A stretch of DNA of 64,000 nt from Squalus acanthias. Lineage: Eukaryota. Both the position numbers and the translations under genes were made by a program. Each line of letters starts with the position of its first letter. Position 1 is the stretch's first letter. Of the stretch, positions 1,638-56,574 are shown in pieces. The stretch spans positions 111,354,001 through 111,418,000 of the forward strand of contig CM059431.1 in the NCBI GenBank assembly GCA_030390025.1, given 5' to 3'. A model generated the notes under the pieces. The model was not told the origin of the DNA, searched no databases, and was given only the letters and a program-made list of their open reading frames with translations.

Positions 1638-2363
1638 TCAGTGGATATGTTCACTTACAGCCAATAGTAAAACTATACCCATAATGGTATGATTTGATCG
1701 TCCGCAGTCCACGGGGACTGGGTATGCTTCTGAAGCTAGCCTGAGCTGGCACGGGCTTAATGCGTTCTGAAAAGGGTGGAGCGCCCGCAGGTGTTTGTTA
1801 CTTATCCAGGACGGGACCAAACCTTGTTTTAAATCCTCCAAATTACTGCGGCCCTCGCCCAGTAACCACGCCCTGTAAAGCACGCACACCTCATTCTGCG
1901 CAGCTTGATCGGATGCATTCCGATCTTCCCTAATCAGGGCATTTACCGTTCTCGCGTGTTTCTCTAGTTCAGCTATAATTTCCTTTAAATGGAGAGTCAT
2001 GGCTTGGTCCTCATGTAACCCAGACCCAACCACCTTATTTTCATCTGTGAGAATGTCTTTTAATTGCGTTTTTAAGCCATTAATCTGGGTCTGCAGCTCC
2101 ACGCTGTCTAGAGCGTTGACCACAGATGTACCTGTGTTGAAAGCAGTGAACACGTCGTTCACAACACCCCTTCTTTGCCTCCCCACCTGATCCAAAACTT
2201 CATGTGGTGCGGTGTACAAACTTGTTTTATCAATTTCCGCGAAATCGAATTCGTAAAATTGTCTGAACATCTTGGTCAACAGGACCTGATATAACTGTTC
2301 CGTCTTTTTGGGGCACCACTCTGGTAACCGCACCTCGGTGAGATTTAAAATCACCGAGGCCAC
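1638..2363 (-). CDS. env: env 3' part: class I fusion protein (F2/F1-like), truncated before the TM anchor
   Basis: Furin site RQRR at 2169-2180, then fusion-peptide-like GVVNDVFTAFNTGTSVVNAL, heptad repeat (VELQTQINGLKTQLKDIL), Cys residues and N-glycosylation sequons. Joined to the upstream ORF by a 1-nt frameshift at 2375-2378. Confidence 0.75.
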   Translation of the reverse strand: MASVILNLTEVRLPEWCPKKTEQLYQVLLTKMFRQFYEFDFAEIDKTSLYTAPHEVLDQVGRQRRGVVNDVFTAFNTGTSVVNALDSVELQTQINGLKTQLKDILTDENKVVGSGLHEDQAMTLHLKEIIAELEKHARTVNALIREDRNASDQAAQNEVCVLYRAWLLGEGRSNLEDLKQGLVPSWISNKHLRALHPFQNALSPCQLRLASEAYPVPVDCGRSNHTIMGIVLLLAVSEHIH

Positions 2364-3157
2364 CGCGTAATGTACCCCTGAAATAGTATCTGGTCTGTGG
2401 GGACCAGTACCAAACCATTCCCGGGTCCCTTACTGGTTTTAGGGCACCCTTCTTCTTTAGCTAGAACCACCGGAATCGTGGGCGGGGCTTTGCGTGGGCG
2501 CGTAATGAGTTCAGTGGCATTTACTGGGATCGGGGAGAATGGGGCTCCGCACCCCCTGGTGCTCGCATCCCACCTCATCCCCTGTCCGTTATCCTGCCAT
2601 TGATTAATGAAAAATATGGAGATGCCTTTGGGGCAAACGTACTTTGACCCCCACATACATACATAAATTCCCTCATCCGGTTCCCACCATTTGTCCCAAC
2701 AGACTCTCACTTGTCCGTTTGTCCCCGTAATTGTCCGATGGGTATTATTACCCAGTCGTTCCCACTCGACCGAAGAGTTCCTCATGTTTTTGCTCAGCTT
2801 TCGCAGCCACCACCATCGGCTCAATGGGACATTCCCATTACAAGTCAAACAAATCCGTTTGCCGACGGTGACGCTGATCCTGGGTGCGATGATCCTTACT
2901 TTGGGGCACAGTAAAGAAGTCTCTTGGTAGGCAAAACCCGATGTGCTGGAATACTCCGTTGAGTTCGTTCCCAGCCATCCTGGCCACCTTCCCTTGTGGA
3001 AATAGGTGGTGGTCTCCTCAGCCTCTCGTCTTCCGGTCCCATCCACCGCGATGGGGGCCGTGTCCCCGGAGCATCCAAACACCACGACATCCTTGGTGCG
3101 GCCTCGATAGGCCAATCCGCATCCGATTGCCGCGAGCAATACTAGAATTCGTTCCAT
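2351..3157 (-). CDS. env: env 5' part: signal peptide plus Ig-like domain
   Basis: ATG at 3157 starts MERILVLLAAIGCGLA (signal peptide-like). Ig signature VGKRICLTC...WWW...DEGIYVC. Sequons NST, NSS, NNT, NAT. Confidence 0.7.
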   Translation of the reverse strand: MERILVLLAAIGCGLAYRGRTKDVVVFGCSGDTAPIAVDGTGRREAEETTTYFHKGRWPGWLGTNSTEYSSTSGFAYQETSLLCPKVRIIAPRISVTVGKRICLTCNGNVPLSRWWWLRKLSKNMRNSSVEWERLGNNTHRTITGTNGQVRVCWDKWWEPDEGIYVCMWGSKYVCPKGISIFFINQWQDNGQGMRWDASTRGCGAPFSPIPVNATELITRPRKAPPTIPVVLAKEEGCPKTSKGPGNGLVLVPTDQILFQGYITRWPR

Positions 3158-3170
3158 CCTTCCTTGGTTC

Positions 3171-3190
3171 CTGTGATCAGATAGAATGAG
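3171..3190 (-). promoter_or_regulatory. Candidate env splice acceptor
   Basis: The minus strand reads ctcattctatctgatcacAG|gaaccaaggaaggATG, placing the acceptor 13 nt before the signal-peptide ATG. Confidence 0.5.
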
Positions 3191-3456
3191 GTAGCCAGCC
3201 TCGCAAGAGTCTCTGGCTTTTGTGAAGGGTGAGCGGGTCCCCTGACCTCGCCTCACATAAGCTTCAATGTTCGCTGGATAAACTTTAACTAATCCTATCT
3301 CTAAAACTCCCATCATTTTACTTCCTTAAACAAAATTAAACTACCGACTTAAACCGATTTAAAACTATAAACTTGTTCTTAACCTTAAACTATAAACTTC
3401 GAAACTTATCCTAAACTTATTACTGTACAGCGCCGCCCGTTCCCAGGGCGGCCCCT

Positions 3457-6400
3457 TTAAATTCTGAAAAGGCTGCCACGAGCTCTTCCCGACGGTGGGA
3501 GGGCATTGACCCCTCCCTTTGATCTGCCGCAGCTTGTTGCTGCTGCGCTGGGACTGGGCTCTCCCTGGGCTGCCTTAGCCTTGAGCCTACGCCTTGGGAC
3601 AGTCTGGGGACTTGACCATATCTTCCTGGGCTGGGGTATCCGACCTGACCTACGGAGAGTTACCGGGGGCAAGAACTCCAGGACCGACGGACCGGGTTCC
3701 GAGACTTCCACCGTGGCGACCTGTGGTCCCGCCACAGTCGCTGGCTCTGCCTCCCCTGGCTCCGCCTCCCTGAACTCGGGATCTGCAGCTTGTGGCACCG
3801 CCCTACTCGGCCCAGTAGGCGGCCCTTCACTCGCAGTCCCTACCTCCCTCGAGGGCAAGACGTTCAAGGCGGGCGGCTCGGGCTCTGAGGCTTCCATCGC
3901 CACGCCCTGTGGTCCCACCACAGCGGCTGGCTCCGCCTCCCCTGGCTCCTCCCCCCTGCGTTTGGGACCTGCAGCTTCGGCTTCCACCCTGTGTGGATCT
4001 CTATCTGCAGCCCCTGTCCCCCCTATACCTGAATCGGGGGCGACCCTTTCGTCCTCCGATTCCAGCTCTTCCTCGTCACTATCTTCACTATCCTCACTTT
4101 CACTGTCTTCGTCGAGCTCCTTGAACTCACCCTCATCTGACTCCCAACCCCACAAAAATGTCTCACAATTTTCCAGGATGTCCCCTTCCCTGATGCAAGC
4201 TGCTTTGCCTGCCTGTGTGCCCTGTGGCCTTACCTGGGGCTGCGAGTCCCCACTCGCAGGTTTTGCCCCTGTGGTTGGCCCTTGTGCACCTGGCTTGTAC
4301 AGTTTGCACTGGTTTACATGGAACCACTTAGTGCGCCGAGGTACCTTTACGGCGTATACCATGGGACTCGCCTTATCTACAATGTTGTAGGGTCCCATAT
4401 ACAGTGGTTCCAGACTCCCTACTCTGGCGTAGTTTCTGACCATGACCTGGTCTCCTACTTCCCACTCCCGCGTTTTGCGGGGTTCCAGCAACAGGCGATT
4501 GCCCTGATGCTGCCTTCCCATGTTCCCAGCCGCCTGCTCATAAACCTGCTTCAGGCGCTCCAAGAGGGTCTGGGCGAACTTGTCCCTGTTTATCTCTTGG
4601 AGCTGACCCTCAGTGAGCACCGGCGCTAGCACATGGGTGGGGGTTCGCATGATCCTCCCAGTGGTCACCTCGTGCGGGGAATACCCCGTACTTTTCGACT
4701 GACTGGCCCGGACCCCCATGAGGACTAAAGGCAGAACCTCCGCCCATTTTTGGGGCGAGTTCATAGTCTCTTTCCTCAATTTCTCCTTCAGGGTCCGGTT
4801 CATGCGTTCAACAATCCCGGATGACTGGGGATTGTGTGCTACGTGCCATTTCCCTTCAATGCCCAAAAGCATGAGGGTGTTCTGCATCACCTGGCCGGTG
4901 AAATGACTCCCTTGGTCTGACTCCACAAAACGGGAAAGTCCCCACCGCGAGAACACCTCCCGGACCAAGATTTTTGCAGTACCCAGTGCCGTAGCTGTTC
5001 TACAGGGGAAGGCTTCCACCCATTTGGAAAACACATCCACCAAGACGAGGCAGTATTTATAGCCTCCCTGGGTGGTGGGCAGGGGCCCTATATAGTCGAT
5101 CTGTATCGACTGCCATGGTCCCTCTACCCTCCTGACGTGCCCCATGGGCACTTTCCTTTTCTGGGGGTCTGGGTTGTTTGCAGCGCACACGAGACAGCTT
5201 GCACAGAACTCGCGGACCTGTTCCCTGAGCCCCGGCCACCATCCCGCTTGCTCTACCCGTTGCCAGGTAACCTCGGGCCCGGGGTGCCCTGCCCCTGGTC
5301 CCTCGTGAGCCAACTGGAGGAATTCCCTCCTGTGCTGCTGCGGCACAACCCACTGCTCCTCGCGGAACAGCATGCCTTCCTTAACTGAGAGGGTTGCCGT
5401 ACTGTACGGACCCTCTACCTGCTTCCCCTCAGCAAGGGTTTTGAGGACCGCTTTTAGGGCGGGATCCTGGTTCTGGACGGTCTTAAGGTCTAGGGGCAAT
5501 GCTACCCTGGTGTTCCCGGGATTCCCGTCCCTGCCTTGGATCGCTGCCATGGGTCTGGGCCCATAGGGGTCCCAGAAAATGCCGTTGCGGGCACCTTCCC
5601 TGGCTAGCGCATCCGCCTGCTGGTTGCCCTCCCCACGGGGCTCTGTGGAGGAGTGAGCCTTCACCTTATGGATGAAAATCTCCCCTTCCTCCCCTACTGC
5701 TGCTAGGATCTTTTCCAGCAAGGGCTTCACTGTTAAAGGTCGCCTGTCCGCGGAGGTGTATCCACGGCGGGACCAAATGGCCAGGTATTCCGTACACGAA
5801 TTGCATGTGAACATACTGTCCGAGCAAATCGTGTATGGGGTTGGGAAAATTTCTGGGTGGGTAACGACGTACACCACTGCAGATAGCTCAGCCTGCTGCG
5901 CGCTCATGGTGCTAAGGAGCTTGATCGCCAGGGCAAGGTTTGCCGCAGGGTCATAAACTCCACACCCTGTGAGTCGTTCGCCAGCAGATACTGTGCTGGA
6001 ACCATCAACATAAATCTCGCGCCCAGTGGGATGTATCCCGGCCCGCAAACCTATGTTGACTTCCCACACCCCTTCCACCGAACACTGGTGGGCTGTACCG
6101 GGGTATACCAAATTGGCCGCAAGCCTGGGCTCGCAAAGACCTTTAACTCTAAGATCCATCTGGGAAAGAAGAAGGGTCCAGCGCGCAATAAGCGCGCTGC
6201 TTACGGTCCCATCTTTAATCCTCCCATCTAGAAGCATCTTAGTTGGTGTGTGATGGGTGAGGAGAGTGATGGGAGAGAGTCCTGTGAAGATCGCTGATCT
6301 TTTCACAGCCCAATGCGTGGCTAAAAGGTGCCTTTCGCAATTGGAGAAACTTCTCTCCACATCCGTTAACACCCTGGACGAATAGACAACCGGCCTCAGC

Positions 6401-7956
6401 TTGCCGTGACGCTCTTGGAGCAGCACAGCGCTCAAGCTGTCCCCGCTGGCAGCTACCTCCAGGAAAAACTCCTTCCCCCCATCTAAAGCTGGCGCGGTCT
6501 GCAGATCCCTTTTTAACTTCTCGAAGGCTGCTTGGCAGCCCTCGTCCCAAGACCACTCCACTCCCTTATGGAGGAGTCGGAGCAGCGGCGCCGCTGTGGC
6601 CGCATAGTCTTCGATAAAATCCCTGCAGTAACCGGTCAGTCCCAAAAAAGACCTCACACCCCTTATGGTGTTGGGAATCAGTAACTCTTGCACCGACTCC
6701 CTCCTAGCCTTATCTATGGCTCTTTCCCCAGCGCGAATGGTCAGCCCCAGGAATTTTACTTCCTGCTGACCGATACGTGCTTTCTTAGGGTTTACTTTAA
6801 AACCCTTTCTCGCTAGCAGCTCCAATAACTCGGCCAGCAGTGGTCCATGCTCCTCCCTTGAATCCGTAAATAGGAGCAAATCATCCACGTACTGCACTAT
6901 CTGATTGGGCTGACTAAACTCCTTTAAACTTCCTGCCATACACTGATGGAAAATACTGGGGCTGTTGTGGAAACCCTGTGGCAGACAGTTCCATGTGTAC
7001 TGTTGTCCTTTGAAAGTAAAGGCAAACTTGTACTGGTCCTCTCGCCGCAGCGGGATGGACCAAAAACCATTCGAGATATCCAGCACCGTGAACGTGGTCG
7101 CGGACGCTGGGATACTCCCTATTAGGTCAGCGACTGCTGCTACCGTGGGCGCGCAGGCGGGAATGTTACTGTTAAGGACTCTGTAGTCCACCGTGGCCCT
7201 CCACGAATTATCCGGCTTCCTAACCGGCCATAATGGGGAGTTCACGTGTGTGGCTATCGGCCTCAACACGCCCTGCTGCACCAAGGAGGACATTGCTGTC
7301 TCCATATCGGGTTCTGCTTCTTTGGGGAAGTTATACTGCTTTTGGGGCCGGGTCATGGGGTCCCCATCTACGCTGACCTCAAACCCGGTAACCCTCCCAC
7401 AATCGTGCTTGTGGGTTGCAAACGCGTGCATATTATCTGACACGTACGTTTGCATGTCCGTTGGGACATCCGCGACCATAAGCCCGAGATCGTAGCCTCC
7501 GGATGGCTTCATGGTACACAGGGTCCCTGTTCCTTCCTCCCCCGGAATTACCACTACCTCGCCGTCTCCACCCTTAGCCCCCCAGAGGCAGTGATTCCTG
7601 AGGTCCACGAGGATCCCGTGCCCTGATAGGAGATCGGACCCGAGGATACCTCTCCCACCCCCCTCATGCCATTTCATCAGTATGCACTTCCACGTGATGT
7701 GGAGTGTTCCTAAACGAATGGATAGCGGAAGGGAGAACGCGCCAGCCTGTTCTTTTCCCGTGAACCCCGCTAATGTGAATGGGACCTTGGTAGATAGCGG
7801 TGAGTCAAAAGGGCTATCTGTATGAATCACGGTGCAAGAAGCTCCCGTGTCCAACAAATAACTACCCTTCTGTTGCTCTACCTCCATCTCTACCAGGGGT
7901 CGCTTCCACGCATCATAGCTGAGCGGACACAGGTAGACGGGCTGCGCGGGCTCTAG
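3457..7956 (-). CDS. pol: Pol polyprotein: aspartic protease, RT, degenerate RNase H tether, RNase H, integrase with GPY motif, acidic/Pro-rich tail
   Basis: Protease LLDTGAS and GILGSD. RT LPQGF and YVDD (6880-6891). RNase H IYVDGSS/AQQAEL/SDS/HKVKAH/GNQQADALA. Integrase HHCC, IDY/SDQG/VERMN and MGPY. The frame stays open from the gag stop at 7957 to 3457. Confidence 0.95.
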   Translation of the reverse strand, partial: LEPAQPVYLCPLSYDAWKRPLVEMEVEQQKGSYLLDTGASCTVIHTDSPFDSPLSTKVPFTLAGFTGKEQAGAFSLPLSIRLGTLHITWKCILMKWHEGGGRGILGSDLLSGHGILVDLRNHCLWGAKGGDGEVVVIPGEEGTGTLCTMKPSGGYDLGLMVADVPTDMQTYVSDNMHAFATHKHDCGRVTGFEVSVDGDPMTRPQKQYNFPKEAEPDMETAMSSLVQQGVLRPIATHVNSPLWPVRKPDNSWRATVDYRVLNSNIPACAPTVAAVADLIGSIPASATTFTVLDISNGFWSIPLRREDQYKFAFTFKGQQYTWNCLPQGFHNSPSIFHQCMAGSLKEFSQPNQIVQYVDDLLLFTDSREEHGPLLAELLELLARKGFKVNPKKARIGQQEVKFLGLTIRAGERAIDKARRESVQELLIPNTIRGVRSFLGLTGYCRDFIEDYAATAAPLLRLLHKGVEWSWDEGCQAAFEKLKRDLQTAPALDGGKEFFLEVAASGDSLSAVLLQERHGKLRPVVYSSRVLTDVERSFSNCERHLLATHWAVKRSAIFTGLSPITLLTHHTPTKMLLDGRIKDGTVSSALIARWTLLLSQMDLRVKGLCEPRLAANLVYPGTAHQCSVEGVWEVNIGLRAGIHPTGREIYVDGSSTVSAGERLTGCGVYDPAANLALAIKLLSTMSAQQAELSAVVYVVTHPEIFPTPYTICSDSMFTCNSCTEYLAIWSRRGYTSADRRPLTVKPLLEKILAAVGEEGEIFIHKVKAHSSTEPRGEGNQQADALAREGARNGIFWDPYGPRPMAAIQGRDGNPGNTRVALPLDLKTVQNQDPALKAVLKTLAEGKQVEGPYSTATLSVKEGMLFREEQWVVPQQHRREFLQLAHEGPGAGHPGPEVTWQRVEQAGWWPGLREQVREFCASCLVCAANNPDPQKRKVPMGHVRRVEGPWQSIQIDYIGPLPTTQGGYKYCLVLVDVFSKWVEAFPCRTATALGTAKILVREVFSRWGLSRFVESDQGSHFTGQVMQNTLMLLGIEGKWHVAHNPQSSGIVERMNRTLKEKLRKETMNSPQKWAEVLPLVLMGVRASQSKSTGYSPHEVTTGRIMRTPTHVLAPVLTEGQLQEINRDKFAQTLLERLKQVYEQAAGNMGRQHQGNRLLLEPRKTREWEVGDQVMVRNYARVGSLEPLYMGPYNIVDKASPMVYAVKVPRRTKWFHVNQCKLYKPGAQGPTTGAKPASGDSQPQVRPQGTQAGKAACIREGDILENCETFLWGWESDEGEFKELDEDSESEDSEDSDEEELESEDERVAPDSGIGGTGAADRDPHRVEAEAAGPKRRGEEPGEAEPAAVVGPQGVAMEASEPEPPALNVLPSREVGTASEGPPTGPSRAVPQAADPEFREAEPGEAEPATVAGPQVATVEVSEPGPSVLEFLPPVTLRRSGRIPQPRKIWSSPQTVPRRRLKAKAAQGEPSPSAAATSCGRSKGGVNALPPSGRARGSLFRI

Positions 7957-9723
7957 TCATTGGGTACTATTAGACGGGGCTGTGGCACCTGCGGGGCCGG
8001 TAGCAACCGCCACCTTTCCATGCGCACTCATGAGGTTACGCATGGCTCCCAACACTGTTTCGATCGCGTCGGGATGGATGGGTGCACTAGCTTCCCTATC
8101 AGAGACAGGCGCCTGGGCTCGGGCTGCGGGATTTTTATCCCTGGAATCCTTCCAAGGGTTCCTGCAGTTCTTGCGCCAGTGCCCTGTCTTCCCACACCCG
8201 TAACAAGCATTACTGGCCTGCGGGGCGCGGTTACCCTCCTGATGCCACTCCTTTTGAGCCGGGGCTGCGGGTCGTGCCTCATGCACCTTTCCCTTAAGGG
8301 GACGTGCTCCCATACTTCTGGTATTACGGTACCCCACCGTGAGTCGATTTAGGACCGACTCCTCTGTAGTGGCGGGGTCAGTGGGATCAAACCACGCTTT
8401 TGCCTGCTCCCTGACGGCTGGCAAACTGTTGGTTACTATACACCTGAGCCAATGAGTTAAACCGATGTCTGCCACATCGGCGCGCTCTGGCGCACCTGGG
8501 CAGCTACGCTGGTATACTGGCCACAGCCTGTCGGCGAAAACCTTCGGGGGTTCTCCCTCCATCTGCACTGTCTGTCCCAGTCTAACAAACGGACCTTCAT
8601 CGTCCGCTCCCAATACTTCTAGGACCTCATTTCTTAGTGCCCCATAGGTCTTAGTTCCCCTCTTGCTCTCGTCTGAGAGACACTGAAGGATCGAACTACC
8701 TAATGAGAATAACAGCATCTTTGCTGTTTCCCCATCGTCGCAGCCGTTAATGGCTGCGGTTTGCTCTATTTCCCTAAAATGTACGGAAGGGTCGTCTGAC
8801 TCGGCCAGCTTCGGTACGTGACTGATCATAATCCTCAGCTGGTGTGAGCTGTGAGGCAACACAAGCTGGTTGAGGAGATCCCCTTGTTCCCCACCGTCTC
8901 TGTTTGGGCCCCTTTTGATACCCGTGACCGGACACAACGGTCCCGGTTCCACTTCTACCTCGGTGGGCTCTTTCGTTACTTCTACCACTTTCTCCCTTAC
9001 CCAGGTTTCCGAATAGCTGGTTGGCGCGGAGGGCATAGTGGCTAATACTTCCTCTGCTTTGTTCGGTGGGGATTTCTGAAATTCCTCATCCACTAGCGGC
9101 TGGTGTGCTGACGGACTGATAAGGCACACCATGCCGTGCGCTTTGTTCACGGCCCTTTTAAGGTGCTCTATCTCCTTTTGGCAGACGCTGTGATCGGCCC
9201 CCTGAAATTTATCCTCGAGGGCCATCTTATATGCCGCCCTAACCCCCGTTAAGCTCTCTTCCTGGGCTTTTATTTGGGCAGCTTGGCGGGCACATCGTTC
9301 CTTTAATCTGCCCTCACTTAACTTTGCCTCAGTGACCTGGCACTCGAGGTAATCTATTTTTGCTTTATGGTGGCTGGTGACTACCTGGCGTTCTTGATGC
9401 AACGCATTTAAATTCGTGATGAGCAGCTGCCCCCCCGTGACCTTCTCGTCCATTTCCACCTCTAAACGCCTGATCTGAGCTGCTTGCGCTGTGATGACCT
9501 GGTCCGAAATTTGGACATGTCTTTTATAGCACATCAGCCAGACCGCTTTCTCCACTGTCTTTTTATGTTCCTTGCTATCTGTCCACCTCTCGGCTGCCTC
9601 TAGTGGACACTTATCCACCAGCAGGTCACTTATCCATTTCTTAGTCAAATTTACTTTTCCGAACACATAATCTGCTATTCTCTCTTCCATGACATTTCGC
9701 CCAATCATACCAAAGTCTAACAC
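7957..9723 (-). CDS. gag: Gag polyprotein with N-terminal coiled coil, capsid-like region and one CCHC zinc knuckle
   Basis: 588-codon ORF between the PBS and pol, with CYGCGKTGHWRKNC and the MHR-like QMEGEPPKVFADRL. The start codon is uncertain. Confidence 0.9.
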   Translation of the reverse strand: MLDFGMIGRNVMEERIADYVFGKVNLTKKWISDLLVDKCPLEAAERWTDSKEHKKTVEKAVWLMCYKRHVQISDQVITAQAAQIRRLEVEMDEKVTGGQLLITNLNALHQERQVVTSHHKAKIDYLECQVTEAKLSEGRLKERCARQAAQIKAQEESLTGVRAAYKMALEDKFQGADHSVCQKEIEHLKRAVNKAHGMVCLISPSAHQPLVDEEFQKSPPNKAEEVLATMPSAPTSYSETWVREKVVEVTKEPTEVEVEPGPLCPVTGIKRGPNRDGGEQGDLLNQLVLPHSSHQLRIMISHVPKLAESDDPSVHFREIEQTAAINGCDDGETAKMLLFSLGSSILQCLSDESKRGTKTYGALRNEVLEVLGADDEGPFVRLGQTVQMEGEPPKVFADRLWPVYQRSCPGAPERADVADIGLTHWLRCIVTNSLPAVREQAKAWFDPTDPATTEESVLNRLTVGYRNTRSMGARPLKGKVHEARPAAPAQKEWHQEGNRAPQASNACYGCGKTGHWRKNCRNPWKDSRDKNPAARAQAPVSDREASAPIHPDAIETVLGAMRNLMSAHGKVAVATGPAGATAPSNSTQ

Positions 9724-9743
9724 ATTACCCTCTCGCTGTCAGT

Positions 9744-9761
9744 GTCCTGCCGCGGTCGCCA
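9744..9761 (-). promoter_or_regulatory. Primer binding site, tRNA-Arg(TCG)-type
   Basis: TGGCGACCGCGGCAGGAC lies 5 nt inside the LTR end. It is complementary to the 3' end of a vertebrate tRNA-Arg(TCG) as I recall it (...GTCCTGCCGCGGTCG-CCA). Confidence 0.8.
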
Positions 9762-9766
9762 TTTTC

Positions 9767-11420
9767 TGTAAGGGTTTTGACTTGTGTGTGGCTCTGTGCT
9801 CAGCCTGGGTGCTAGTGCGAGGTTAGGCCTTGTTGCCTGTTCTGGTCTCCAGCCAGTCTGGGAGCACTAGACACCTGTGAGTGGTTCGACCCACTCGCCC
9901 TTACGGTTCTGACACTGGACTTAGATGCGAGAGCAATAATGGAGAGAAAACTCAGGTAGACCCGGTTGAATGGTACGAAATGGAAAATCTTTATTGCATA
10001 TTATTCAAGATTACGAAATACATGTCATAAGCACAGATTAATGACAGTACAATCTTACACGCAGTTATGTAACTAATTTTAGGGAAACGAGGAACGAACG
10101 ACACATCGTAAATGGGGGCACACATTACAGTTATCCTTAAAACTTAATCCCTCCCCTATCAATACCTGCTCTAAACTAGATTTGTAGGATCGAGACTCAT
10201 GCTCACCACTCGTGATAACTCGGAGAATTCCGAAAATTCTGCTCGGATGTTTTTACCGCAGTACCTGATCACCCACGTGTTGATCAGGGGTCTCTGTACC
10301 CCACTTGTTTACTCGTTTCTGCTCCGGCTAGCAGGCTGGACCGTCTGCTGTCATGAAGATCTGTGTTGTCCTCGGAGTTCCGACACTACTCAAAAAAAGA
10401 GTCTTCCTGTGCCCTCGCCCTGATGCGATAAAACTCGAAGAATAGTCTTCCGATGCCAGTTCTGTAAAGCTCAAAAGATAGTCTTCCTGGGCAAGGAAAG
10501 TGTCTATTCGACCTACAGGCGTGGTCGGGGCTTACTGACCGTGGCGATACGTATGGTCGTCTTCTTCTCTTCTCATCTCATCTCATCTCATCTCATCTCG
10601 GGCCTTTGGTCCCAACACCGTTTACCGACTTCTCGGGATGGTGTGCCCGTTTCAAGGCTTCACAGCCCAGTTCCACACAGATCTTCGCGGCAAGCCACGA
10701 GGCTGATCCTGGCGGATCAGAAAGTTCGATAGTCTTTAAGAGCTGCAAGAGGCAGAGGCACAATGCAAGCGGCAAGAGGCAGGAGAATAAGAGAGAGATG
10801 GACAGTTGTAGCTTACAGTTATAGTGCTGAAACTCTTCTTTTCCCGCCCAACCTTAATGTCTTTTCTTTTGTTAGGGTTTTGGCGCTCAAACTTCTTGTA
10901 TAGGGTGATCTCCGTTTTAATGGGTTTCGGGGATACTCGTAACTGTCTGAGTACCTGTTAATACTTTTCCCAATGTGTAACCGGTCGGTATTCTCCCTGG
11001 AGGGGTTTTGGGGCTTCCAAATGTTTTCTGTAACTACCCGCAAACGGCTCTCTCATCGTAGAGTCGTGGGGATTTTGCATATTAATGTCTTTGGATGGGT
11101 TCTTGATCGCTTGGTACAATAGCCCTTATTCGCACCTGGGAGACCGATTTCAGTATTTATGTGTATACTGCAAAATGTCTTGTGTATTATCTCAAATGTG
11201 CTGAGTCTTGATCGATCTCGCACAAATGTTTATTGGAACGCCATCTTGTCTGCTTATCGAAAGGTCTAGAATGTTCTGCCACGAGGCGTGGCGGCCATTT
11301 TACAGGCTGCTTGTGTCCACTTTGAAAACCTGACAGCATTCTGCTGAAATAAAGCTGTTTGAACGAAATTATGTGTTTTCTCCTTATTTATAAAATCGTG
11401 ATTATATTGCGAATTCTACA
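9767..11420 (-). repeat. 5' LTR (1654 bp)
   Basis: Starts TGTAG and ends CCCTTACA next to the PBS, with AATAAA at 9990-9995. Both ends match the TSD-bounded solo LTR at 32142-33795. Confidence 0.85.
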
Positions 11421-11514
11421 GTAATAAACACATATTTTAATATAGAAGACATGGGGTGTAGCAAATCTGCAACAATAAATGTGTGCCTCCTCCACTGTGT
11501 GTAATTTATGATGT

Positions 11515-18882: not shown

Positions 18883-20332
18883 CTATCAGTGCAGATATTT
18901 AGTCAAAGCATGAATCTGTAGTTCAATAAGTAGTGCTGTCACTAGGCTTATTTAGTGTATTGCTATCAATAAGTTATGCGGGAAAAAATGACACTGAAGC
19001 TCAACGCTCTTTCATGTTGTGCAAAAAAAACTTCATTGCTAATGTGATGCTCTTAATTGATTGGCTTAAATTGCTTCCATCAGCAGTGACAACCGAACTT
19101 CGCCCTCGTGTTATACAGTCCAGAATTCTCGCTCCAGACACAATCCGTGTTTGGATGGATTGAATCTATAACTGAGCTCTGAGGAGTTTTTAACAGTTCA
19201 AGATAGCACGAAAATTTCACACACCCACCATTATATTTGACTGAAATCCTAGTGACAATAACACATAACTGTTTGTCAAATCTAACTGGAAAACAGAGGC
19301 GTAACACGACAGGTGAATGTTTTGGGGGAATTCGTCATCAAGCTATGCGTGAAATGGATTTTTATCCCTGAGCAGAATTAAATCAGTCGCATAAATCAGG
19401 TAGCGTCTTGAGCTGCGATTAGTCAGCTGTTGGAAACTGAGTAGGTGGATAACAGAGCGATGACATAGCTCATGTTGATGGATAGGTGGCTGTTTTATAA
19501 ATGAAAATGTGTCTTTATCTGATTATTGTAGGGTGAACAGTTAGCGGCAGCGGTGGTTTGGGTTCAGCTACAGCTCCTTGATTTGTTTGCTTGCACACTG
19601 CAAATTGGGATACGAATGCGATTCTGCCTTCGCCACAGTGGCTGCCCACATTTTCCACTGGTTGACCAACCTGGCAGAATCACTCGGAATTCGTTTAATA
19701 CGTGGGTGAATTGAACGTCATCATACTTTGTCAAATAGCTGCCGTGTTTTTGGCTTGGGATTGCGTGGCACCCCAATGGGAACATTTCACCGAAACCAGA
19801 AAGAGACGTTTGCATGTGGCCAACAATAGAGTTTTTTTTTAAAAAATCGGGGGTTATTTTGGTGAAAGGGTGAGCGCAGACACTCAATGGGTGCTGAGCT
19901 AATAAGACACGCCTGTTTGAAAGTCTGGTTTTAGCACGCAATTTTGGGGCTAATTGATCATTACCGTGATTTAAACGCGCCTGCAGATGCTAAAACCTGC
20001 ACGTTTAGTGCTCAAGTGCTGATTAGAAGCAGTTTTCGTGGCGCGATATATGTAGCTGAAGGTGTGGAGTGCGCTGGCTGGCGCACAGCGGCACGTTGCA
20101 GGATGGCTCAGGCACCGAGAGAGAGGGCGCCCAGGTTCTCCGACGCGCCGCTGGAGATCCGGGTGGAGGAGGTCCAGAGGAGGAGGGATGTCCTGTGCCC
20201 GCAGGGGAGAAGCAGGCCCCAGAGGCAGCTAATGCGGCGCATATGGGAGGAGATCGCCCAGGAAAAAAGAAAGACTTGCATTTATATAGCACCTTTCACG
20301 ACCACCGGATGTCTCAAAGTGCTTTACAGCCA

Positions 20333-22431
20333 ATGAATTTGTTCATCCCTGTTTGGCATAAAAATAAAACAAAAAAGGTGACTCAACCGTGGCTAACAAG
20401 GGAAATTAGGGATAGTATAAGATCCAAGGAGAGGACATATAAATTGGCCAGAAAAAGCAGCAAACCTGAGGATTGGGAGCAGTTTAGGATTCAGCAAAGG
20501 AGGACAAAGGGATTAATTAAGAGGGGGAAAATAGAATATGAGAGTAAACTTGCAGGGAACATAAAAACTGACTGTAAAAGCTTCTATAGATATGTGAAGA
20601 GAAAAAGATTGGTGAAGTCAAGTGTAGGTCCCTTGCAGTAAGAATCAGGGGAATTTATAATGGGGAACAAAGAAATGGCTGACGAATTAAATACATACTT
20701 TGGTTCTGTCTTCACAAAGGAGGACACAAATAAACTCCCAGAGATGTCAGGGAACATAGGGTCTAATGAAAGGGAGGAATTGAATGAAATCACTATTTGT
20801 AGGGAAATGGTGTTAGGGAAATTGACGGGATTGAAGGCCGATAAATCCCCAGGGCCTGATAATCTACATCCTAGGGTACTTAAGGAAGTGGCCCTAGAAA
20901 TAGTAGATGCATTGCTGGTCATCTTTCAAAATTCTATAGACTCTGGAACAGTTCCCATGGATTGGAGGGTAGCTAATGTAACCCCACTATTTAAAAAAGG
21001 TGGTAGAGAAAAAACAGGGGAATTATAGACCGGTAAGCCTGACATCGGTAGTGGGCAAAATGCTAGAGTCCATTATAAAAGATGTAATAGCAGAGCACTT
21101 GGAAAACAGTGACAGGATCGGACAAAGTCAACATGGATTTACAAAAGTGAAATCATGCCTGACTAATCTACTGGAATTTTTTGAGGATGTAACTGGTAGA
21201 ATAGATAAGGGAGAAACAGTGGATGTGGTGTATTTGGACTTTCAGAAGGCTTTCGATAAGGTCCCGCATAAGAGATTGGCGTGCAAAGTTAAAGCAGATG
21301 GGATTGGGGGTGAGGTACTGATTTGGATAGAGAACTGGTTGGCAGACAGGAAGCAAAAAGTTGGAATAAACGGGTCTTTTTCCGAGTGGCAGGCAGTGAC
21401 TAGTGGGGTACCACAGGGATCGGTGCTAGGACCCCAGCCATTCACAATATATATTAATGATCTAGACGAGGGAACTAGATGTAATATCTCTAAGTTTGCA
21501 GATGGCACAAAGCTGGGTGGGCGTGTGTGCTATGAGGAGGATGCAGAGAAACTCCAGTATGATTTGGACAGGTTGGGTGATTGGGCAGATGCATGGCAGA
21601 TGCAGTACAATGTGGATAAATGCGAGGTTATCCACTTTGGTGGCAAAAACAGGAAGACAGATTACTTTCTGAACGGCAATAGATTGGGAAAAGGGGAAGT
21701 GCAACGAGATCTGGGAGTCCTTGTGCACCAGTCGCTGAAGGTAAGCATGCAGGTGCAGCAGGCGGTTAAGAAGGCAAATGGTATGTTGGCCTTCATAGCG
21801 AGAGGATTCGAGTACAGGAGCAAGGATGTCTTGCTGCAGTTGTACAAGGCCTTGGTGAGACCACACCTTGAGTATTGTGTGCAGTTTTGGTCGCCTTATC
21901 TGAGGAAGGATGTTCTTGCCATGGAGGGAGTGCAGCGAAGATTTACCAGACTGATACCTGGGATGGCAGGAATGACGTATGAAGAGAGATTGGGTAGATT
22001 AGGCTTATATTCGCTAGAGTTTCGAAGAATGAGAGGGGATCTCATTGAAACTTATAAAATTCTAACAGGACTAGACAGACTAGATGCAGGAAGGCTGTTC
22101 CCGATGGCGGGGGAGTCCAGAACCAGGGGTCACAGTCTAAGGATAAGGGGTAAGCCATTTAGGACTGAGATGAGGAGGAATTTCTTCACCCAGAGAGTGG
22201 TGAACCTGTGGAATTCTCTACCACAGAAGGCAGTTGAGGCCAATTCATTAAATATATTCAAGAAGGAGATAGATATATTTCTTAAGGCTAAAGGGATCAA
22301 GGGATATGGGGAGAAAGCAGGGACAGGTTACTGAATTTGGATGATCAGTCATGATCTCATTAAATGGCGGAGCAAGCTCGAGGGGCCGAATGGCCTACTC
22401 CTGCTCCTATCTTCTATGCTTCTATGCTTCT
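20333..22431 (+). mobile_element. 5'-truncated CR1 LINE (RT region)
   Basis: ORF 21000-22334 has YLDFQKAFDKV, GVPQGSVLGP and KFADG (FADD altered). Tail ctatgcttctatgcttctat. Confidence 0.95.
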
Positions 22432-24467
22432 ATAAGTACTTTTTGAAGTGGAGTCACTGTTGTAATGTTGGAAACATGGCAGCCAATTTGCACACAGGAG
22501 GTGACAACCAGTAGTCCTGCCCACAGGACATGGCTCCATTTCAACAAGAAATCTAACGACTTGACACGAGTGGTCAAGGTAAGATCCCATCTCACAAACA
22601 CACTGCTCAATAACTGCACCACCACCAGCATCACAACCTCAACACACTGCATCCACCATCGACTATACACTGGCATTCACACACCCACATTACTGCATCC
22701 TTCACAGGTACTACTCACACCTCAGACTATTCTCACAGCTCTTCAACCAAGTGAGGCATCACACACATAAACGCACCTGTCAATACACTCATTCACAATC
22801 ACCACTCTTTCTCTTCCAGGACAAGGTAGCACATAACAGGCGGCAGCAGCACCTGACCGGGGAAGCACGACTTCATGAGATCACACCCCTTGAGGAGGCC
22901 GTGATCGGAAGGGGAGTGACAGGCGCCGTGGCTAGAGGCAGAGCAGGGGGCATATCACCTCGAGGTATGTGGCCACTCTCGCCTCCTCACAGATCCACAA
23001 CTATTCCTGATACCTAATCCCCAAACCTATCCTCACTCCCAAGCTCCTTATGGTTTTATCACACACATCCTCCTATACTGGCCACACACAGCGCACCCTA
23101 ACCCTGCTAGCTTTATCATTGCAGGCTCCCAGGAGCATGATCCAGCTTGCCCCCCACCTTCCCCACCCCCCCCAGAGAAATTGGAAGAGGAACAAGAGTC
23201 ACTTTGCACACACCCCCCCCGCCCCCCCGCCGGAGGAAGAGGAGGAGAGCTAGGAAGAAGGCACTGTGTCAATCGCTACCACTGTCGCAGGCACCGGCTC
23301 AAGACTGACACTACGTGTAATTTAAAGGCCAGGGTAGAACACAGATCATCACAATGGGACACACCGGGCACTAGTGGGCAGCAGCCATGCCGGGTGGAAG
23401 GGACACCACAGGTGCCACCTTGCTGGGGGACAAGGTCACATACTAGTTCTGCTGTAGAGGAGTCAGATGAGGACCTCTCAGGGCCAAGCTTCAGAAGAGG
23501 GCTTATGGGTCTGACAAACCAAATACTTGGTGCAATGGACAGCCTGCCTGAAAGCTTACAGGTGGTGGCTAGGAGGATGGAGAAGTCGCCTCCACCTTGG
23601 CCCATGGCTTGGCGCAGAGCCTGGAACCCATCCTCTCCAGCCTGGAGAGGCTGGTTAATTCCAGCCAGCAACCTGTGGAGCCTGACATCATGCAGCGTCT
23701 GATGACTGAGGTCGCAACTTCCACTGCAGTCATTGCATCTTCCATGGAACGGCGAAGTGCTGCAATGGAAGCTCAGGCAGCTGCCATGGTGGCTCTGGGC
23801 TCCTCGGTGGAAAGGGGTTTGCAGAGTTTCTCTGATGTCCAGAGATCTGTTCTTCATCAGATCACTGGGCGGGCTGAGCAGAGGCCCCGAGGTAATGGCG
23901 TGGGAATCATGGAGCAGGAACCTACTGGCCTCTCTCCAGATGCTATCATTGCTGCTCCCTCCCCTGGCACTCCACCATTGCCCTTGCAGTTGCCTGTCAG
24001 CCAGGCAGCCCAGGCTGAAGCACATGCTGAGATAATGCAGACTGAGGAGGGGCCATCACGGCCCACAGTCTTGCGAGGGCGTCGCAGGAGGACATCAGAA
24101 CTGCCCTCTTCAGATTCTCAGCAGCCATCCACCTCACCTGCAGCCGCCACTGGGGTTGCACTTCGTAGAAGCACCAGAGTAGACAAGAGCACTTGTAGAT
24201 AGCCACTAAGGGTAAGCACCAGGGTGAATAGTTTAATATTTGTTAGTTGTGTCATGTTTCCATTGTTTGCTTTTGCTGCAGATATGGTAATTGGGTAATG
24301 GTGGAATTGGTGGTCTTTTTTATTGTGGTTTTCATGGGGAAGGGGTTGAAAGGATTGAGGGTAGATGATGGACTTCCTGATGTATCCTCAGTTGTGGAAG
24401 GTAAGGCCTGTGGCAGCAGCGCTCCGGAATCTGATGGTGGAGGATGTCTCTCAAAAGCGGTCTTCAA

Positions 24468-25619
24468 TTAGATGGCGGCAAGTGTCCCTCCCAGGTGCGG
24501 GCCGTCTACCTGGAGCCCTCTGGTGCTCCCCTTGGTCCCCCTTCTCTTCCTCCTGCTCCTCCTCTTGTGGCTCGTGAGCTTGATCCTCTGGCACAATATG
24601 CTGGTGGTAACGCCTGGTCTCTCATGATCGCCAGATTTTGTAACATGCAGCAAGTCATCATGAATCCGGAGACCTTCGCAGCTGAGTACTGGAGGGAACC
24701 TCCTGACCGGTCAAGGCATCTAAACCTCTACTTGTGGACCCCAATGGTCTGCTCAATGAGATTCCTGGTGGCTCTCATTTTATGAGCGCTCAGCTGGTGT
24801 CTGGAGGTTTGTCAGTGGAGTTATGAACCATGGCATCAGAGGGTATTCCTTGTCACTTAGTAGCCAGCCATGCACATAGCATTGGGGCTCAAAGATCAGT
24901 GGGACGGATGACTGTCTCATTATAAATACATTGTGGCAGCCCCCTGGATAGCAGGCATTCACCTGCTTGATGCGCTGCCAGGTGGTCACACACGAGATGC
25001 ACATTGAGGGAATGGAATCCCTTCCTGTTCCTGACACCTCTGAGTTTAAATGAGGGGCTCACATGGCCACATGTGTACAGTCAATGGCTCACTGGACCAT
25101 GGGGAATCCCGCAATCCTGTCAAATCCTTGAGCTCTCTGCCTCTGGTCTTCTCTGGCAATACAGAATGATATATAGTCATTCCTCAGAGCACATAGAGCC
25201 ACAGAGACCTCCCTTATGCAGATGTGCACAGAGGATTGTGATATGTAACTGATATCACCTGTGGCAGCCTGGAAAGTTCCAGCAGCATAAAAATTAAGTG
25301 CTACTGTGACTTTGACTGCCACAGGCAATGCAGTCCTGGCTGTGCTGCGAGCTCTGAGTCTTCCTTCCACGAGGCCACAGATCTCTGGGATGACCTCCTT
25401 GGTAAAGCGGAGCCTCCTCATGCACTGGTCTTGGGTCATGTGAATGTAAGAGTAGTGCTCTCTGAAGACCCTGGGTGTGTAGGGCCTCCTGCTGAGAGCC
25501 CTCCTCGCCCTCCTGTCCCTCTCTCCTGCTGCAGCTGGTGCTGCTCTGCCTGGCCTCATCTCCTCCTCCCATTCCTCCTGCAGACTAAGGGGGACACCTA
25601 GCAAGATGCCCATAACCAA
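24468..25619 (-). pseudogene. Frameshifted Harbinger (HARBI1-like) transposase
   Basis: RRLRFTKE, LPVAVKVTVALNFYAAG, IAGFP, YPGGCHNVFI and WLLSDKEYPL are spread over several frames. Confidence 0.85.
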
Positions 25620-25845
25620 GCACTCCCTTTCTCCCGGTGACTCCTATAAGGTGGGGTAGCACAGCACTCACTCTTTTTAGGTGAAGTCCTGAGTGAATTT
25701 CCAGAAAAAATGTTGATAGAGTGTTGGGTCCCAGAAAGTCTCCCGATGTGTCTCAAAGGTCTTCTTCAAACGCAGTCTATCTCTAACAGCAAGTGAACAG
25801 TGAAAGCTGAGCATAGCGCAAAATCCTCACCAACGACTTCTTTTA

Positions 25846-32141: not shown

Positions 32142-33795
32142 TGTAAAGTTTCGCAATTATCGCGATTCAAAATAACAAGAGAGAAGCAGATTCGTTCGAT
32201 CAGTTTATTTAAACGAAATGCTGTCATGATTATAAAGGACACAGAAGCCTGTAAAATGGCTGCCGCGCATCGTGGCAGAAGCTTCCAGAAATACAGTGGG
32301 CAGACAAGATGGCGTCGAATAAACATTCGATATAAAATTGGATCATACTCGGTAAACATTGATAAAGACAGGATGCAACCTGTTTGCATTTGAAACAATA
32401 GCAAAGATATAAGTGCTGGAATCGTTTTCCATGCACAAGTAAGGACCATTGTACTGGGCAATCGAAGGCCCATCCAGACACAGCAATACACATATACCCC
32501 CACGGCTCTACAATGAGAGAGCCATTCACGGGTGATTAAGTCAGTATTCGAGGAGGCCCCAAAACCAGTCAGGGAGACTCCTAGCCGGTTCGACAATGGG
32601 GAAAACATTAACGGATAGTTGGCCAGTTTCAGGTGCTACCGAAACCCGTTAAAGGAAAGAATCGCCCCATGCTGGGAGTTTTGTGCGCCAATATTTCACA
32701 AAGGACAAACATTAAGATTTGAGCGGGAGATAAGGGAACACAGCACTATAACTATAGTGAACAAACGTCCATCGGTCTCTTGACTCGGGCTGAACTCTTG
32801 ATTCGACTCTTATTCTCCGGGCTCTTGACTCTCTTATCTTGCTGATGACTGCTGAAGCTCTTCCTTAGGGCTGGACATTGTTGACTCTTGACTTTTAGCC
32901 GTACTGGTCGGTTATTCGAATGTTGGGTGGAGCTCAAACGGAACGAGCCGCCTCGACAAGGGCAAGTGACCGGGTGCACCATCCTGAGGGTCGGTAAACG
33001 GTGTCTGGACCCGAAGGCCCGAAGAGACAAGACGAAACGAGACGAGAAGAAGAAGAATCCACGTGCCGCCACGGTCAGTAAACCCCGACCGCGCCCGAAA
33101 ATATAATAAAAGACTCTTCATTGAAATCTACCGACAACCGGTGTCGGTACAGGAAGACTCTTCTTTGAATTTTACAAACGTTCCGAGTTCTACCGAGTTC
33201 TTCATGACAAAAGACGGTCTGGCCTGCTTGTCGCAGCAGCGAAGATAAACAAGTGGGGTACAGAGACCCCTCCAAACACGTGACAGTCAGGCGCTGCAGC
33301 GAACGAGCCGAGCGCCTCACTTTAAAATTCTCCGAAGTATCACGAGTGGTGAGCATGTTTCCCGATCCTACAAATCTAGATGTAGTGTAGGTATTGATAA
33401 GGGAGGGTGGTTTTATTAAGGATAAAGTATAATGTGTTCCCCTTTTTACGATGTGCCGTGCGTTCTTCATTTCCATAGACCAAGCTTTATGAATGTATGT
33501 ATACTTGTACTCTCGTTAATTTGCGCCTATGACATGTACTTCATGATTTTGGACGCTATGCAATAAAGATTTCCATTTCGTACTATTCAACCGGGTCTAT
33601 CTGAGTTTTCTCTGCATTACTGCTTCTGCACCTAAGTCCAGTGTTAGAACCGTAAGGGTGAGTGGGTCGAACCACTCACAGGTGCTTATTGCAATAAGGC
33701 TGGCCGGAGACCAGAGCAAGCAATAGTATTAGGCAACGAAGGCCTAACCTCGTACCAGCACCGTCTGTGATACAAGCACAACAAAAACCCTTACA
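32142..33795 (+). mobile_element. Solo LTR related to the provirus LTR
   Basis: TGTAA...TTACA termini, 4-bp TSD GCCT (32138-32141 and 33796-33799), and colinear homology with the reverse complement of 9767-11420. Confidence 0.9.
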
Positions 33796-43567: not shown

Positions 43568-43904
43568 TAGGCCCACAGAGGTGGCGGACCTGGGTGGAGC
43601 GGCTGCGGCGAGGCGGCGGCTGTAAAAGAGGCGGCGGCGACCAGGTAGGCTTACCAATTGAAGCCCCGAGAGCGAGAGAGAGAGAAGTAAAAAATAATCA
43701 AAGTGTGACGTCACCAGAAAGCAAGTAAGTGATTGGTTGGTGAGTATTTCTCTTTTTATCCTTTCTTCCATACTTAAATTCTGTGGTTTATAGTTTCTAG
43801 AGTCTCTGTGGTGTAGCAAGGGCCCTTGAGTATATCATTTAATTGAAGTGAAATTGGTGGGATTCAATTAGTTTAATTTTAATTAATTAATTAAAGGGTA
43901 AGTC

Positions 43905-44855
43905 ATGGCAGGAGAGCTCAGCGCCGTGATATGCTCCTCTTGCTATATGTGGGAAATCAGGGACGCTTCCTGTATCCCTGACGACCATGTGTGTGGGAAA
44001 TGTATCCAGCTGCAGCTACTGACGGACCGCATTGCGGCGCTGGAGCTGCGGATGGATGCATATTGGAGCATTCGCGACACTGAGAATGTTGTGGATAACA
44101 CGTTTAGCGAGTTGGTCACACCGCGGGTAAAGGGTGTACAGGCAGGAAGTGAATGGGTGTCCACCAGGCAGAGTAAGAGGTGCAGGCAGGTAGTGCAGGG
44201 GTCCCCTGTGGCCATCCCCCTCTCAAACAGATATACCACTTTGGATGCTGTTGGGGGGGATGACTTATCAGGGGAAGGCGGCAGCAGCCAACTTCCTGGC
44301 ACCATGGGTGGCTCTGCTGCACAGGCTGGGAGGAAAAAGTGTGGAAGAGCTATAGTGATAGGGGATTCAATTGTAAGGGGAATAGATAAGCGTTTCTGCG
44401 GCCGCAAACGAGACTCCAGGATGGTGTGTTGCCTCCCTGGTGCAAGGGTCAAGGACGTCTCAGAGCGGCTACAGAACATTTTGGAGGGGGAGGGCGAACA
44501 GCCAGTTGTCGTGGTGCACATAGGCATCAACGATATAGGTAAAAAACAGGATGAGGTCCTAAAAGCAGAATATAGGGGGTTAGGAGGTAAATTAGAAAAG
44601 AGGACCTCAAAGGTAGTAATCTCAGGATTGCTACCAGTGCCACGTGCTAGTCAGAGTAGAAATAGGAGGATATTTCAAATGAATACGTGGCTAGAGGAAT
44701 GGTGCAAGGGGGAGGGATTCAAATTCCTTGGACATTGGAACCGGTTCTGGGGGAGGTGGGACCAGTACAAACGGGACGGTCTGCACCTGGGCAGGGCCGG
44801 GACCGATGTCCTAGGGGGAGTGTTTGCTAGTGCTGTTGGGGAGGGTTTAAACTAA
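43905..44855 (+). CDS. CR1 ORF1p: zinc finger/leucine zipper plus SGNH esterase
   Basis: CSSC...CGKC, leucine heptad, IVIGDS, HIGINDI and DGLHL in an intact 316-aa ORF. Confidence 0.9.
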   Translation: MAGELSAVICSSCYMWEIRDASCIPDDHVCGKCIQLQLLTDRIAALELRMDAYWSIRDTENVVDNTFSELVTPRVKGVQAGSEWVSTRQSKRCRQVVQGSPVAIPLSNRYTTLDAVGGDDLSGEGGSSQLPGTMGGSAAQAGRKKCGRAIVIGDSIVRGIDKRFCGRKRDSRMVCCLPGARVKDVSERLQNILEGEGEQPVVVVHIGINDIGKKQDEVLKAEYRGLGGKLEKRTSKVVISGLLPVPRASQSRNRRIFQMNTWLEEWCKGEGFKFLGHWNRFWGRWDQYKRDGLHLGRAGTDVLGGVFASAVGEGLN

Positions 44856-45039
44856 AGTGGCAGGGGGTTGGGAACCTGAGCAGGGAGACAGAGGAAAGGG
44901 AAACAAGGATAAAAGCTAAAGACAGGAAGGAGAAAAACAAAAGTAGAAGGCAAAGAACTCAACGGTTTAAATCAAACATGGTCACAGTAAATAATAATTC
45001 ATATAGGTCTGAGAGTGTTAAAAAAACAAGCCTGAAGGC

Positions 45040-56280: not shown

Positions 56281-56574
56281 GAGGTGTGACAAAATGCTGG
56301 TCATTTTTTTATTAAAGGTCGAGGTTCATGGTCCAACTTTTGTTTAGTGTTTTGGACATTATCTCCAGGTTGTGAGAACCAGTTATGTTATTGACTGTTT
56401 TTTTGTGTTTATTTCTATGAGTTTGTCATGAGGAATTGACACACACAGAGTTTGTAAAATAAATAAGTTTCTGTATTCAAAATATACACGGTTGGTGGTT
56501 GGAATTATTGGTGCCTTGGCCGGCTTAGGGGTTGCGTGCTGGGTTCATTAATGTTGTTAGCAATGGCAGGGGCC

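Follow-up and report, generated by a model that had tools for sequence, protein, structure and literature searches.

What kind of retrovirus left the provirus that occupies positions 1667 to 11420, on the minus strand, of a 64,000-nucleotide stretch of the Squalus acanthias genome (NCBI GenBank assembly GCA_030390025.1, contig CM059431.1, positions 111,354,001 to 111,418,000; hereafter the window)? A preliminary description, made from the sequence alone, saw in it a recent lokiretrovirus-like element from a lineage between Ty3/Gypsy elements and classical retroviruses. Here, we find a real provirus, with long terminal repeat (LTR), primer binding site (PBS), gag, pol and env, and conclude that it is probably one copy, truncated at its 3' end, of an endogenous retrovirus (ERV) of cartilaginous fish that is young and high in copy number and belongs to the basal class III grade of canonical Retroviridae that includes snakehead retrovirus (SnRV). 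What is new is the family, its size and youth, its UGA-CUAG gag-pol junction, and the combination of a canonical reverse transcriptase (RT) with a lokiretrovirus-like integrase (IN) and an F-like envelope protein (Env).

Structure of the provirus

The features of the element, in proviral order, are these:

11421..11424, minus strand: host 4-mer TTAC before the 5' LTR, the expected target-site duplication (TSD), as the family makes 4-bp TSDs
9767..11420, minus strand: 5' LTR, 1,654 bp, TG...CA, its ends defined from 3' LTRs and TSDs in other copies
9762-9766, minus strand: five-base spacer between LTR and PBS, present in 20/20 sampled copies
9744..9761, minus strand: PBS for tRNA-Arg(TCG), 18 nt, 5 nt after the LTR
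7957..9738, minus strand: gag frame, 593 codons, first ATGs at 9708 and 9690
7953..7959, minus strand: gag stop, TGA-CTAG readthrough-type context
3457..7956, minus strand: pol frame, 1,499 codons, contiguous and in frame with gag, one stop between
near 7850, minus strand: protease (PR), DTG
7338-6547, minus strand: RT
about 6486-6160, minus strand: tether
6018-5590, minus strand: RNase H
5346-4297, minus strand: IN
2351..3325, minus strand: env 5' frame, with a hydrophobic signal-peptide-like stretch after an ATG at 3157, ending at a frameshift near 2380
2603..2917, minus strand: weak Ig-like domain in the N-terminal part of env (Pfam Ig_3, E=0.011, below cut-off)
2429-1638, minus strand (proviral part 1667..2429): env 3' frame, with F2-like strand and fusion-peptide and heptad region, truncated at 1667
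2180-2169, minus strand: furin site RQRR, in the env 3' frame
1667..1670, minus strand: truncation junction, whose last four proviral bases are the expected TSD 4-mer

The 5' LTR matches other genomic copies at 93-100% identity in 40 of 40 scored matches. The PBS noted in the preliminary description can pair with a host tRNA-Arg(TCG) at its 3' end, over the last 15 nt of the tRNA gene plus CCA, and is identical in 17 of the 20 sampled copies. The leader from the PBS to the first gag ATGs is very short, at 36-54 nt (9690-9743, minus strand). The primer tRNA end has 431 genome matches, and tandem arrays with a 1,623-bp period bear tRNA-Arg(TCG) and tRNA-Ser(GCT) (L043-L045, G000:C26); because of these matches and the length of the arrays, we regard the primer tRNA gene as highly amplified.

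The gag-pol frame is broken only by the gag stop, as first described. Gag has a long coiled-coil-like N-terminal part and a single CCHC knuckle at about 8205; this knuckle drives the Gag similarity tests, and was the only match when gag was compared with SnRV by BLASTP (E=0.005). Pfam matches comprise PR, RT, two RNase H domains (the first of tether type), the zinc finger, core and SH3-type end of IN, and a single CCHC knuckle, and the full set of catalytic motifs announced for PR, RT, RNase H and IN is present (DTG, YVDD, D-E-D-D, HHCC and D-D-E). The studied pol is open, yet carries two small in-frame deletions relative to the family, near 5700 and 6480. Downstream of IN lies an acidic, proline-rich Pol tail of about 270 codons with internal repeats and a basic end (3460-4284, minus strand). 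Most copies keep this tail open, with pol frames of around 1,500 codons, and a 309-codon frame runs antisense to it at 3461-4390.

At its 3' end the copy is incomplete. One LTR, at 11420-9767, is as reported, and a search for a second at the left end of the element found none, leaving this copy with no 3' LTR; env is likewise present, but is frameshifted near 2380 and cut at 1667, where similarity to other family copies ends. The copy is ~1.3 kb of env and polypurine tract (PPT) plus a 3' LTR short of the full element of ~12.7 kb. The anchor at the truncation junction is exact in 2 of 20 copies, both of which have the same 4-mer and then diverge. The 4-bp match suggests that the 3' part was lost by a deletion running from env to the copy's own target duplication.

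Placement by reverse transcriptase

Pol is matched best by frog proteins that bear the name 'NYNRIN-like' (43-45% identity over RT-RNase H) and by coelacanth proteins. RT identity is highest to frog and coelacanth ERVs (45-55%), followed by SnRV (43%), turtle and fish groups (40-44%), walleye dermal sarcoma virus (WDSV; 36%), lokiretrovirus-type proteins (33-39%), foamy viruses (33-35%) and Gypsy elements (24-33%), and the best PDB sequence matches of RT-RNase H are the foamy and murine leukemia virus enzymes, at 206-225 bits. The RT motif, PQGFHNSP, is as in canonical retroviruses and by eye like that of the published SnRV RT; the lokiretrovirus motif given in the supplement of PMC7947760 is PFGY-N-S--EF.

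We built RT trees of 45 rows, drawn from 90 and those in turn from 262, under LG+C20 PMSF. P0130 and L041 match the published SnRV RT, and P0177 is named walleye epidermal hyperplasia virus 1; the foamy, gamma-, delta- and lentivirus references come from IMG/VR and are labelled by motif, length and tree position, with L084 and L048 labelled by Pfam as well. The element falls within a 34-row canonical clade (support 100/99) that contains foamy, SnRV, epsilon-, gamma-, delta- and lentivirus rows, while the lokiretrovirus-type rows stand separate (100/98). It lies outside the gamma/epsilon/delta/lenti clade (98/93), so it is not in the class I clade, and it is in neither the foamy clade nor the Gypsy clades; it also has two RNase H domains, where Gypsy elements have one. 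Approximately unbiased (AU) tests rejected a tree forcing the element's nine-row group together with lokiretroviruses (p=0.0012) and did not reject one forcing it together with SnRV (p=0.238). Other basal retroviral RT lineages appeared alongside, namely P0172 from horn shark and one group, P0265/P0266 and P0127/P0142, from cuckoo and turtles.

By its RT sequence, then, the element is assigned to canonical Retroviridae, and not to the lokiretroviruses, Gypsy elements, foamy viruses or a class I genus; membership of an SnRV-like clade is likely. For RT, the proposed lokiretrovirus-like position between Ty3/Gypsy elements and classical retroviruses is not supported by this placement or by the AU test, although the RT does keep clear of Gypsy clades and of a named genus, as that proposal would have it, and sits in an unclassified basal grade with SnRV. 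The first impression of a lokiretrovirus arose because IN, tether and the F-like env do resemble those of lokiretroviruses.

A young, high-copy family

A 23-nt pattern spanning the gag stop has 333 matches in the 3.7-Gb assembly (none for the reversed control), a lower bound on internal copies that marks the family as high-copy and supplies the copy count called for at the outset. Other copies have the complete layout LTR-PBS-gag-pro-pol-env-PPT-LTR, with the order PR-RT-tether-RNase H-IN. We sampled 20 copies for closeness to the window, which biases the dating toward young copies; in the 12 complete LTR pairs among them, Kimura two-parameter distances are 0.0017-0.0061 (median 0.0033), and ten of these pairs have perfect 4-bp TSDs, with nine different 4-mers. 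With rates borrowed from Han (PMC4422223), these distances give ages of 4-14 million years if the shark rate is used, or 0.4-1.4 million years if the mammalian rate is used. Eight pairs were excluded from dating: in three the 5' LTR is partly covered (0.0032-0.0065), in one both LTRs are partial (0.020), two are apparent local duplications (0.0012 and 0.0074), one is interrupted (0.0066) and one is discordant (0.096). The little-decayed, CpG-rich composition noted earlier is borne out, with an observed/expected ratio of 0.69 inside the element and 0.81 in the LTR versus 0.41-0.48 in the flanks. The description of the provirus as young and endogenised is supported.

Many relatives keep open frames, as had been suspected. 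Unbroken env frames of 780-862 codons occur in 11 of the 20 sampled copies, and internal stops are absent from 54/58 env, 33/38 pol and 63/76 gag matches among the best-scoring in the genome, tallies that are biased to intact copies and are the source for the state of the gag-pol frames. Contigs from four public runs, labelled as four organisms, also contain the family at repeat-like depth; none of them contains the unique left flank of the studied copy. Named env relatives come from one skate, Rhinoraja (76% identity), and two sharks, Pristiophorus (54-74%) and Scyliorhinus (64%). Niban-like and zinc-finger gene models in a sawshark annotation have env fragments of the lineage fused to them (P0270, P0271), through either misannotation or exonisation. 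Elsewhere in the window, at 32191-33762 on the plus strand, stands an older solitary LTR of related type, 68-76% identical in three pieces, which is from an earlier wave of the same lineage.

The gag-pol junction and the envelope

Among 100 junctions listed of the 333, TGA is kept in 98 and TGA-CTA-G/A in 94 (71 G and 23 A, counted by eye). UGACUA is the type II readthrough context of alphaviruses, UGACUAG gives basal readthrough in human genes, and the retroviral contexts listed in the accessible text of PMC13517186 are UAGGGA, UAGGAU, UAGGGC, UGAAGA, UGACGA and UGAAGU (PMC13517186). The UGA-CUAG junction is absent from that list, and in this respect is new. Its context suggests that Gag-Pol would be produced by readthrough.

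The natural env frame of another copy (P0121) encodes a hydrophobic start, ten N-glycosylation sites, an RQRR site at residue 324 and a transmembrane helix near residue 730; CX6CC and an immunosuppressive domain were looked for in it and not found. Pfam gives this Env no match to TLV_coat, PF00523 or Foamy_virus_ENV, while three gamma-type controls match TLV_coat; SnRV and WDSV Env (L041:6131-9535 and L049:5962-9648) have no Pfam envelope match either. In the ESM Atlas, whose calibration was not measured for parts of proteins, the nearest clusters to Env residues 240-780 are Baculo_F, Gypsy env and Fusion_gly (0.94-0.95, 200-211 of 256 features), and the matching part of SnRV Env reaches the same cluster types at 0.90-0.92. 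End-to-end alignment gives z scores of 5.5 with SnRV and 5.6 with WDSV (60 shuffles each), 0.3-4.2 with 17 foamy Envs, all weakly positive, and -1.9 to 0.9 with 14 other Envs; among themselves, the SnRV, WDSV and shark family Envs align end to end at z 4.9-5.6. By eye, the order of motifs matches published lokiretrovirus Envs. Structure prediction was poor: AlphaFold2 modelled the C-terminal part with a mean pLDDT of 35.5 alone and 35.8 with a 12-row alignment, and searches with these models, by Foldseek against BFVD (no match at E<=0.001) and by VIA-align (coiled-coil matches only, under Z 8), speak neither for nor against the fold. We consider an F-type fold likely for this Env, and the Envs of SnRV and WDSV seem to be F-like as well. 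A literature search, with subscription papers and PMC9967133 outside its reach, returned no description of either of these two as F-like.

The N-terminal part of Env gives a weak Ig-like signal in several comparisons. Ig_3 matches the homolog P0310 at E=0.0027, also below cut-off; the 60 PDB matches listed for this part are all antibody chains, JAM or Robo1, the best at E=0.083; and SnRV Env gives a V-set hint at E=0.096. By structure, foamy Env is a class Ib, F-like fusogen whose receptor-binding parts are modular (PMC11468914), and by analogy it is a reasonable inference that the N-terminal Ig module serves as an attachment domain.

Weighing the alternatives

Several observations weigh against placing the family beside SnRV, or against parts of the reading built on that placement. 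The base of the canonical clade is without resolution in the RT tree and SnRV is unplaced there; SnRV was sister to the element's group only in an unfinished 90-row tree without support values, and the 45-row trees did not recover this pairing. The trees hold no Odin, ERV-L, alpha- or betaretrovirus rows, and the lokiretrovirus rows are eight proteins that share the PFGY-N-S--EF motif and are labelled by it, not named sequences. IN scores 202-208 bits to lokiretrovirus-type proteins versus 121 to SnRV, and the tether 62-66 versus 29; the IN and RNase H trees leave the element unplaced (NYNRIN itself is not in the IN tree). No stable RNA structure was predicted after the gag stop (z=+1.27). Finally, BLASTP of env to SnRV Env reached only E=0.11, and tests of Env against SnRV, WDSV and foamy Env with profile hidden Markov models (of the shark Env set and of the 17 foamy Envs) and with hhalign gave nothing significant.

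The alternative that best survives, though we hold it to be unlikely, is that the shark, frog and coelacanth elements form a major unnamed lineage of their own, to which SnRV is no nearer than foamy viruses or orthoretroviruses are. A branch supported at 76/75 sets the nine-row group apart with SnRV left unplaced, RT identity to SnRV (43%) barely exceeds that to the turtle and fish groups, and the TGA stop and type of IN are unlike those of SnRV. Yet the AU test leaves a union with SnRV standing, both have a primer site read as Arg-type, the same arrangement of the gag stop and the same layout of Env, and published work already describes a divergent clade that contains SnRV and occurs in coelacanth, amphibians and elephant shark (PMC4977317; PMC4422223).

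We think it improbable, more so than a separate lineage, that the family is a mosaic in which a canonical basal RT was joined by recombination to an IN, an env or both from a lokiretrovirus. This would account for the conflict among domain scores, with RT favouring SnRV (221 bits, versus 190 to lokiretroviruses) and IN and tether favouring lokiretroviruses; frog and coelacanth relatives join lokiretroviruses in the IN tree at 85/87, and domain replacement has been described for retroviral RNase H and IN (PMC7947760). However, that grouping is unstarred and does not include the studied element, the IN score of SnRV is lowered by its long branch, and slowly evolving lineages with ancestral states retained would yield the same scores. 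Similarity in Env reaches SnRV and WDSV too, which makes a lokiretroviral donor unnecessary.

That the element is a true lokiretrovirus, the first from cartilaginous fishes, is very improbable. Its dual RNase H (tether and RNase H), F-like Env, and IN and tether scores would fit, but a dual RNase H is common to all retroviruses and is not diagnostic; its nearest database matches are named 'NYNRIN-like', and lokiretrovirus IN is reported to be closest to CGIN1/NYNRIN (PMC7947760). Against membership stand the RT tree with its AU test, the different RT motif, a clade of lokiretrovirus and foamy RNase H (96/88) formed without the element, whose own long branch is unplaced in that tree, and a long insert between PR and RT in the lokiretrovirus-type Pol rows P0007 and P0009 that the studied Pol does not have. 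Least credible of all is that the near-identical copies reflect segmental duplication or assembly artefact in place of recent integration: in 2 of 20 copies the downstream LTR flank is the same as the 5' LTR flank, which points to local duplication, but each of ten complete copies, which lie on different contigs, is flanked by a perfect 4-bp TSD of its own, and the family recurs in the four public runs with their four organism labels.

A model for the family and its meaning

For a young, SnRV-like family of canonical retroviruses, we propose a mode of working like that of SnRV and other readthrough retroviruses. The LTR would drive genomic RNA, on which tRNA-Arg(TCG), pairing with the observed PBS, would prime reverse transcription. 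Translation of Gag would begin shortly downstream of the PBS, and ribosomes that now and then read through the UGA-CUAG/A stop, whose context is observed, would yield Gag-Pol. IN would make the 4-bp duplications that are seen flanking family copies. Env would act as a class Ib (F-type) fusogen cleaved at RQRR, its motifs being observed and its fold likely, with the N-terminal Ig-like module probably used for attachment. The family has spread recently through new integrations, and the studied copy afterwards lost the end of env together with the 3' LTR. This loss probably came about through a deletion whose two sides met at 4 bp that match the target duplication of the copy, which cannot replicate on its own.

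The wider significance lies in Env. The family combines a canonical basal RT with an F-like Env that is apparently also present in SnRV and WDSV; this favours a single ancestral F-type Env that was later replaced in most genera, and agrees with the solved foamy Env (PMC11468914). We tentatively suggest, as an idea with somewhat less than an even chance of being right, that retroviral Env was ancestrally of the F type (class Ib) and has remained so in lokiretroviruses, foamy viruses, SnRV, walleye epsilonretroviruses and this shark lineage, with gamma- and beta-type Envs as later replacements; that a slowly diverging shark-frog-coelacanth lineage has kept its IN, tether and Env in the ancestral state next to a canonical RT; and that the family may still invade its host's germ line. 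Wang and Han favour the view that lokiretroviruses and canonical retroviruses acquired Env independently (PMC9040795). The hundreds of young copies provide material for studying recent germ-line invasion in a slowly evolving host. The weight of these points is limited by the fact that SnRV-like ERVs in cartilaginous fish were already known, and by an F-type fold of Env that is likely only.

The window also holds repeats of other kinds. Frames that we take to be Harbinger-like transposase and Myb/SANT-like lie at 54363-57681, 22920-25643 and 1232-1552, one transposase frame having 368 codons, and copies of what is presumably a CR1-type LINE lie at 20060-22334, 43902-47838 and 62329-63411, two of them 98% alike and in inverted orientation.

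Comparison with known systems

Lokiretroviruses (PMC7947760) share with the family the dual RNase H and, probably, an F-like Env with RXKR-type cleavage and, by score, a related IN, but differ in RT clade and motif and apparently in RNase H clade; the shark Env moreover has about 230 extra N-terminal residues with the Ig-like domain, and no smc gene was seen in the element. Lokiretroviral elements are reported from 0/6 chondrichthyan genomes (PMC7947760). Odin retrotransposons, with an RT sister to that of lokiretroviruses, have no env, whereas env is present in the shark element. Foamy viruses have an Env of the F-like paramyxovirus/pneumovirus subclass Ib (PMC11468914), to which the shark Env probably belongs as well, whereas the shark RT is only 33-35% identical to theirs and in a separate clade, its gag has a CCHC knuckle, and its pol is apparently read through from gag. 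WDSV, an epsilonretrovirus, is like the family in its in-frame gag stop and in a non-gamma Env that aligns end to end (z 5.6), but its RT, 36% identical, lies within the orthoretrovirus clade that excludes the element. XtERV-S (PMC8278194) also has a class III pol and a TGA between gag and pol, but combines these with YIDD, a dUTPase and a gamma-type env, which the shark element does not have. The family is undescribed in the accessible portions of PMC10435555, PMC11521997, PMC12583693, PMC12440569, PMC8278194, PMC9447858 and the anamniote/anuran and errantivirus preprints.

In RT (45-55%), tether, RNase H and IN the family is nearest to the frog and coelacanth ERV Pols annotated as 'NYNRIN-like' or 'Gypsy integrase-like' (P0002-P0006, P0131, P0148 and P0151), which were compared by Pol. 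Among described viruses, the closest comparison is with SnRV and SnRV-like ERVs. SnRV differs in its gag stop (TAG-GGC, versus TGA-CTAG in the shark family) and in the IN and tether, which in the shark family are nearer lokiretrovirus-type proteins; between the end of env and the 3' LTR the family also has no recurrent extra open reading frame of 80 or more codons, bar frames overlapping env, and SnRV Env found a single match in the host genome, at E=0.96. The two are alike in a basal canonical RT (43% identity), in gag and pol in frame across one stop, and in a large non-gamma Env with an N-terminal Ig-like signal and an F-like C-terminal half. SnRV-like ERVs have already been reported from cartilaginous fish as the elephant shark CmiERV lineage I (PMC4422223; PMC4977317), and the family described here, compared with CmiERV by published figures and not sequences, is far younger, with LTR distances of 0.002-0.006 versus 0.024-0.033 (PMC4422223).

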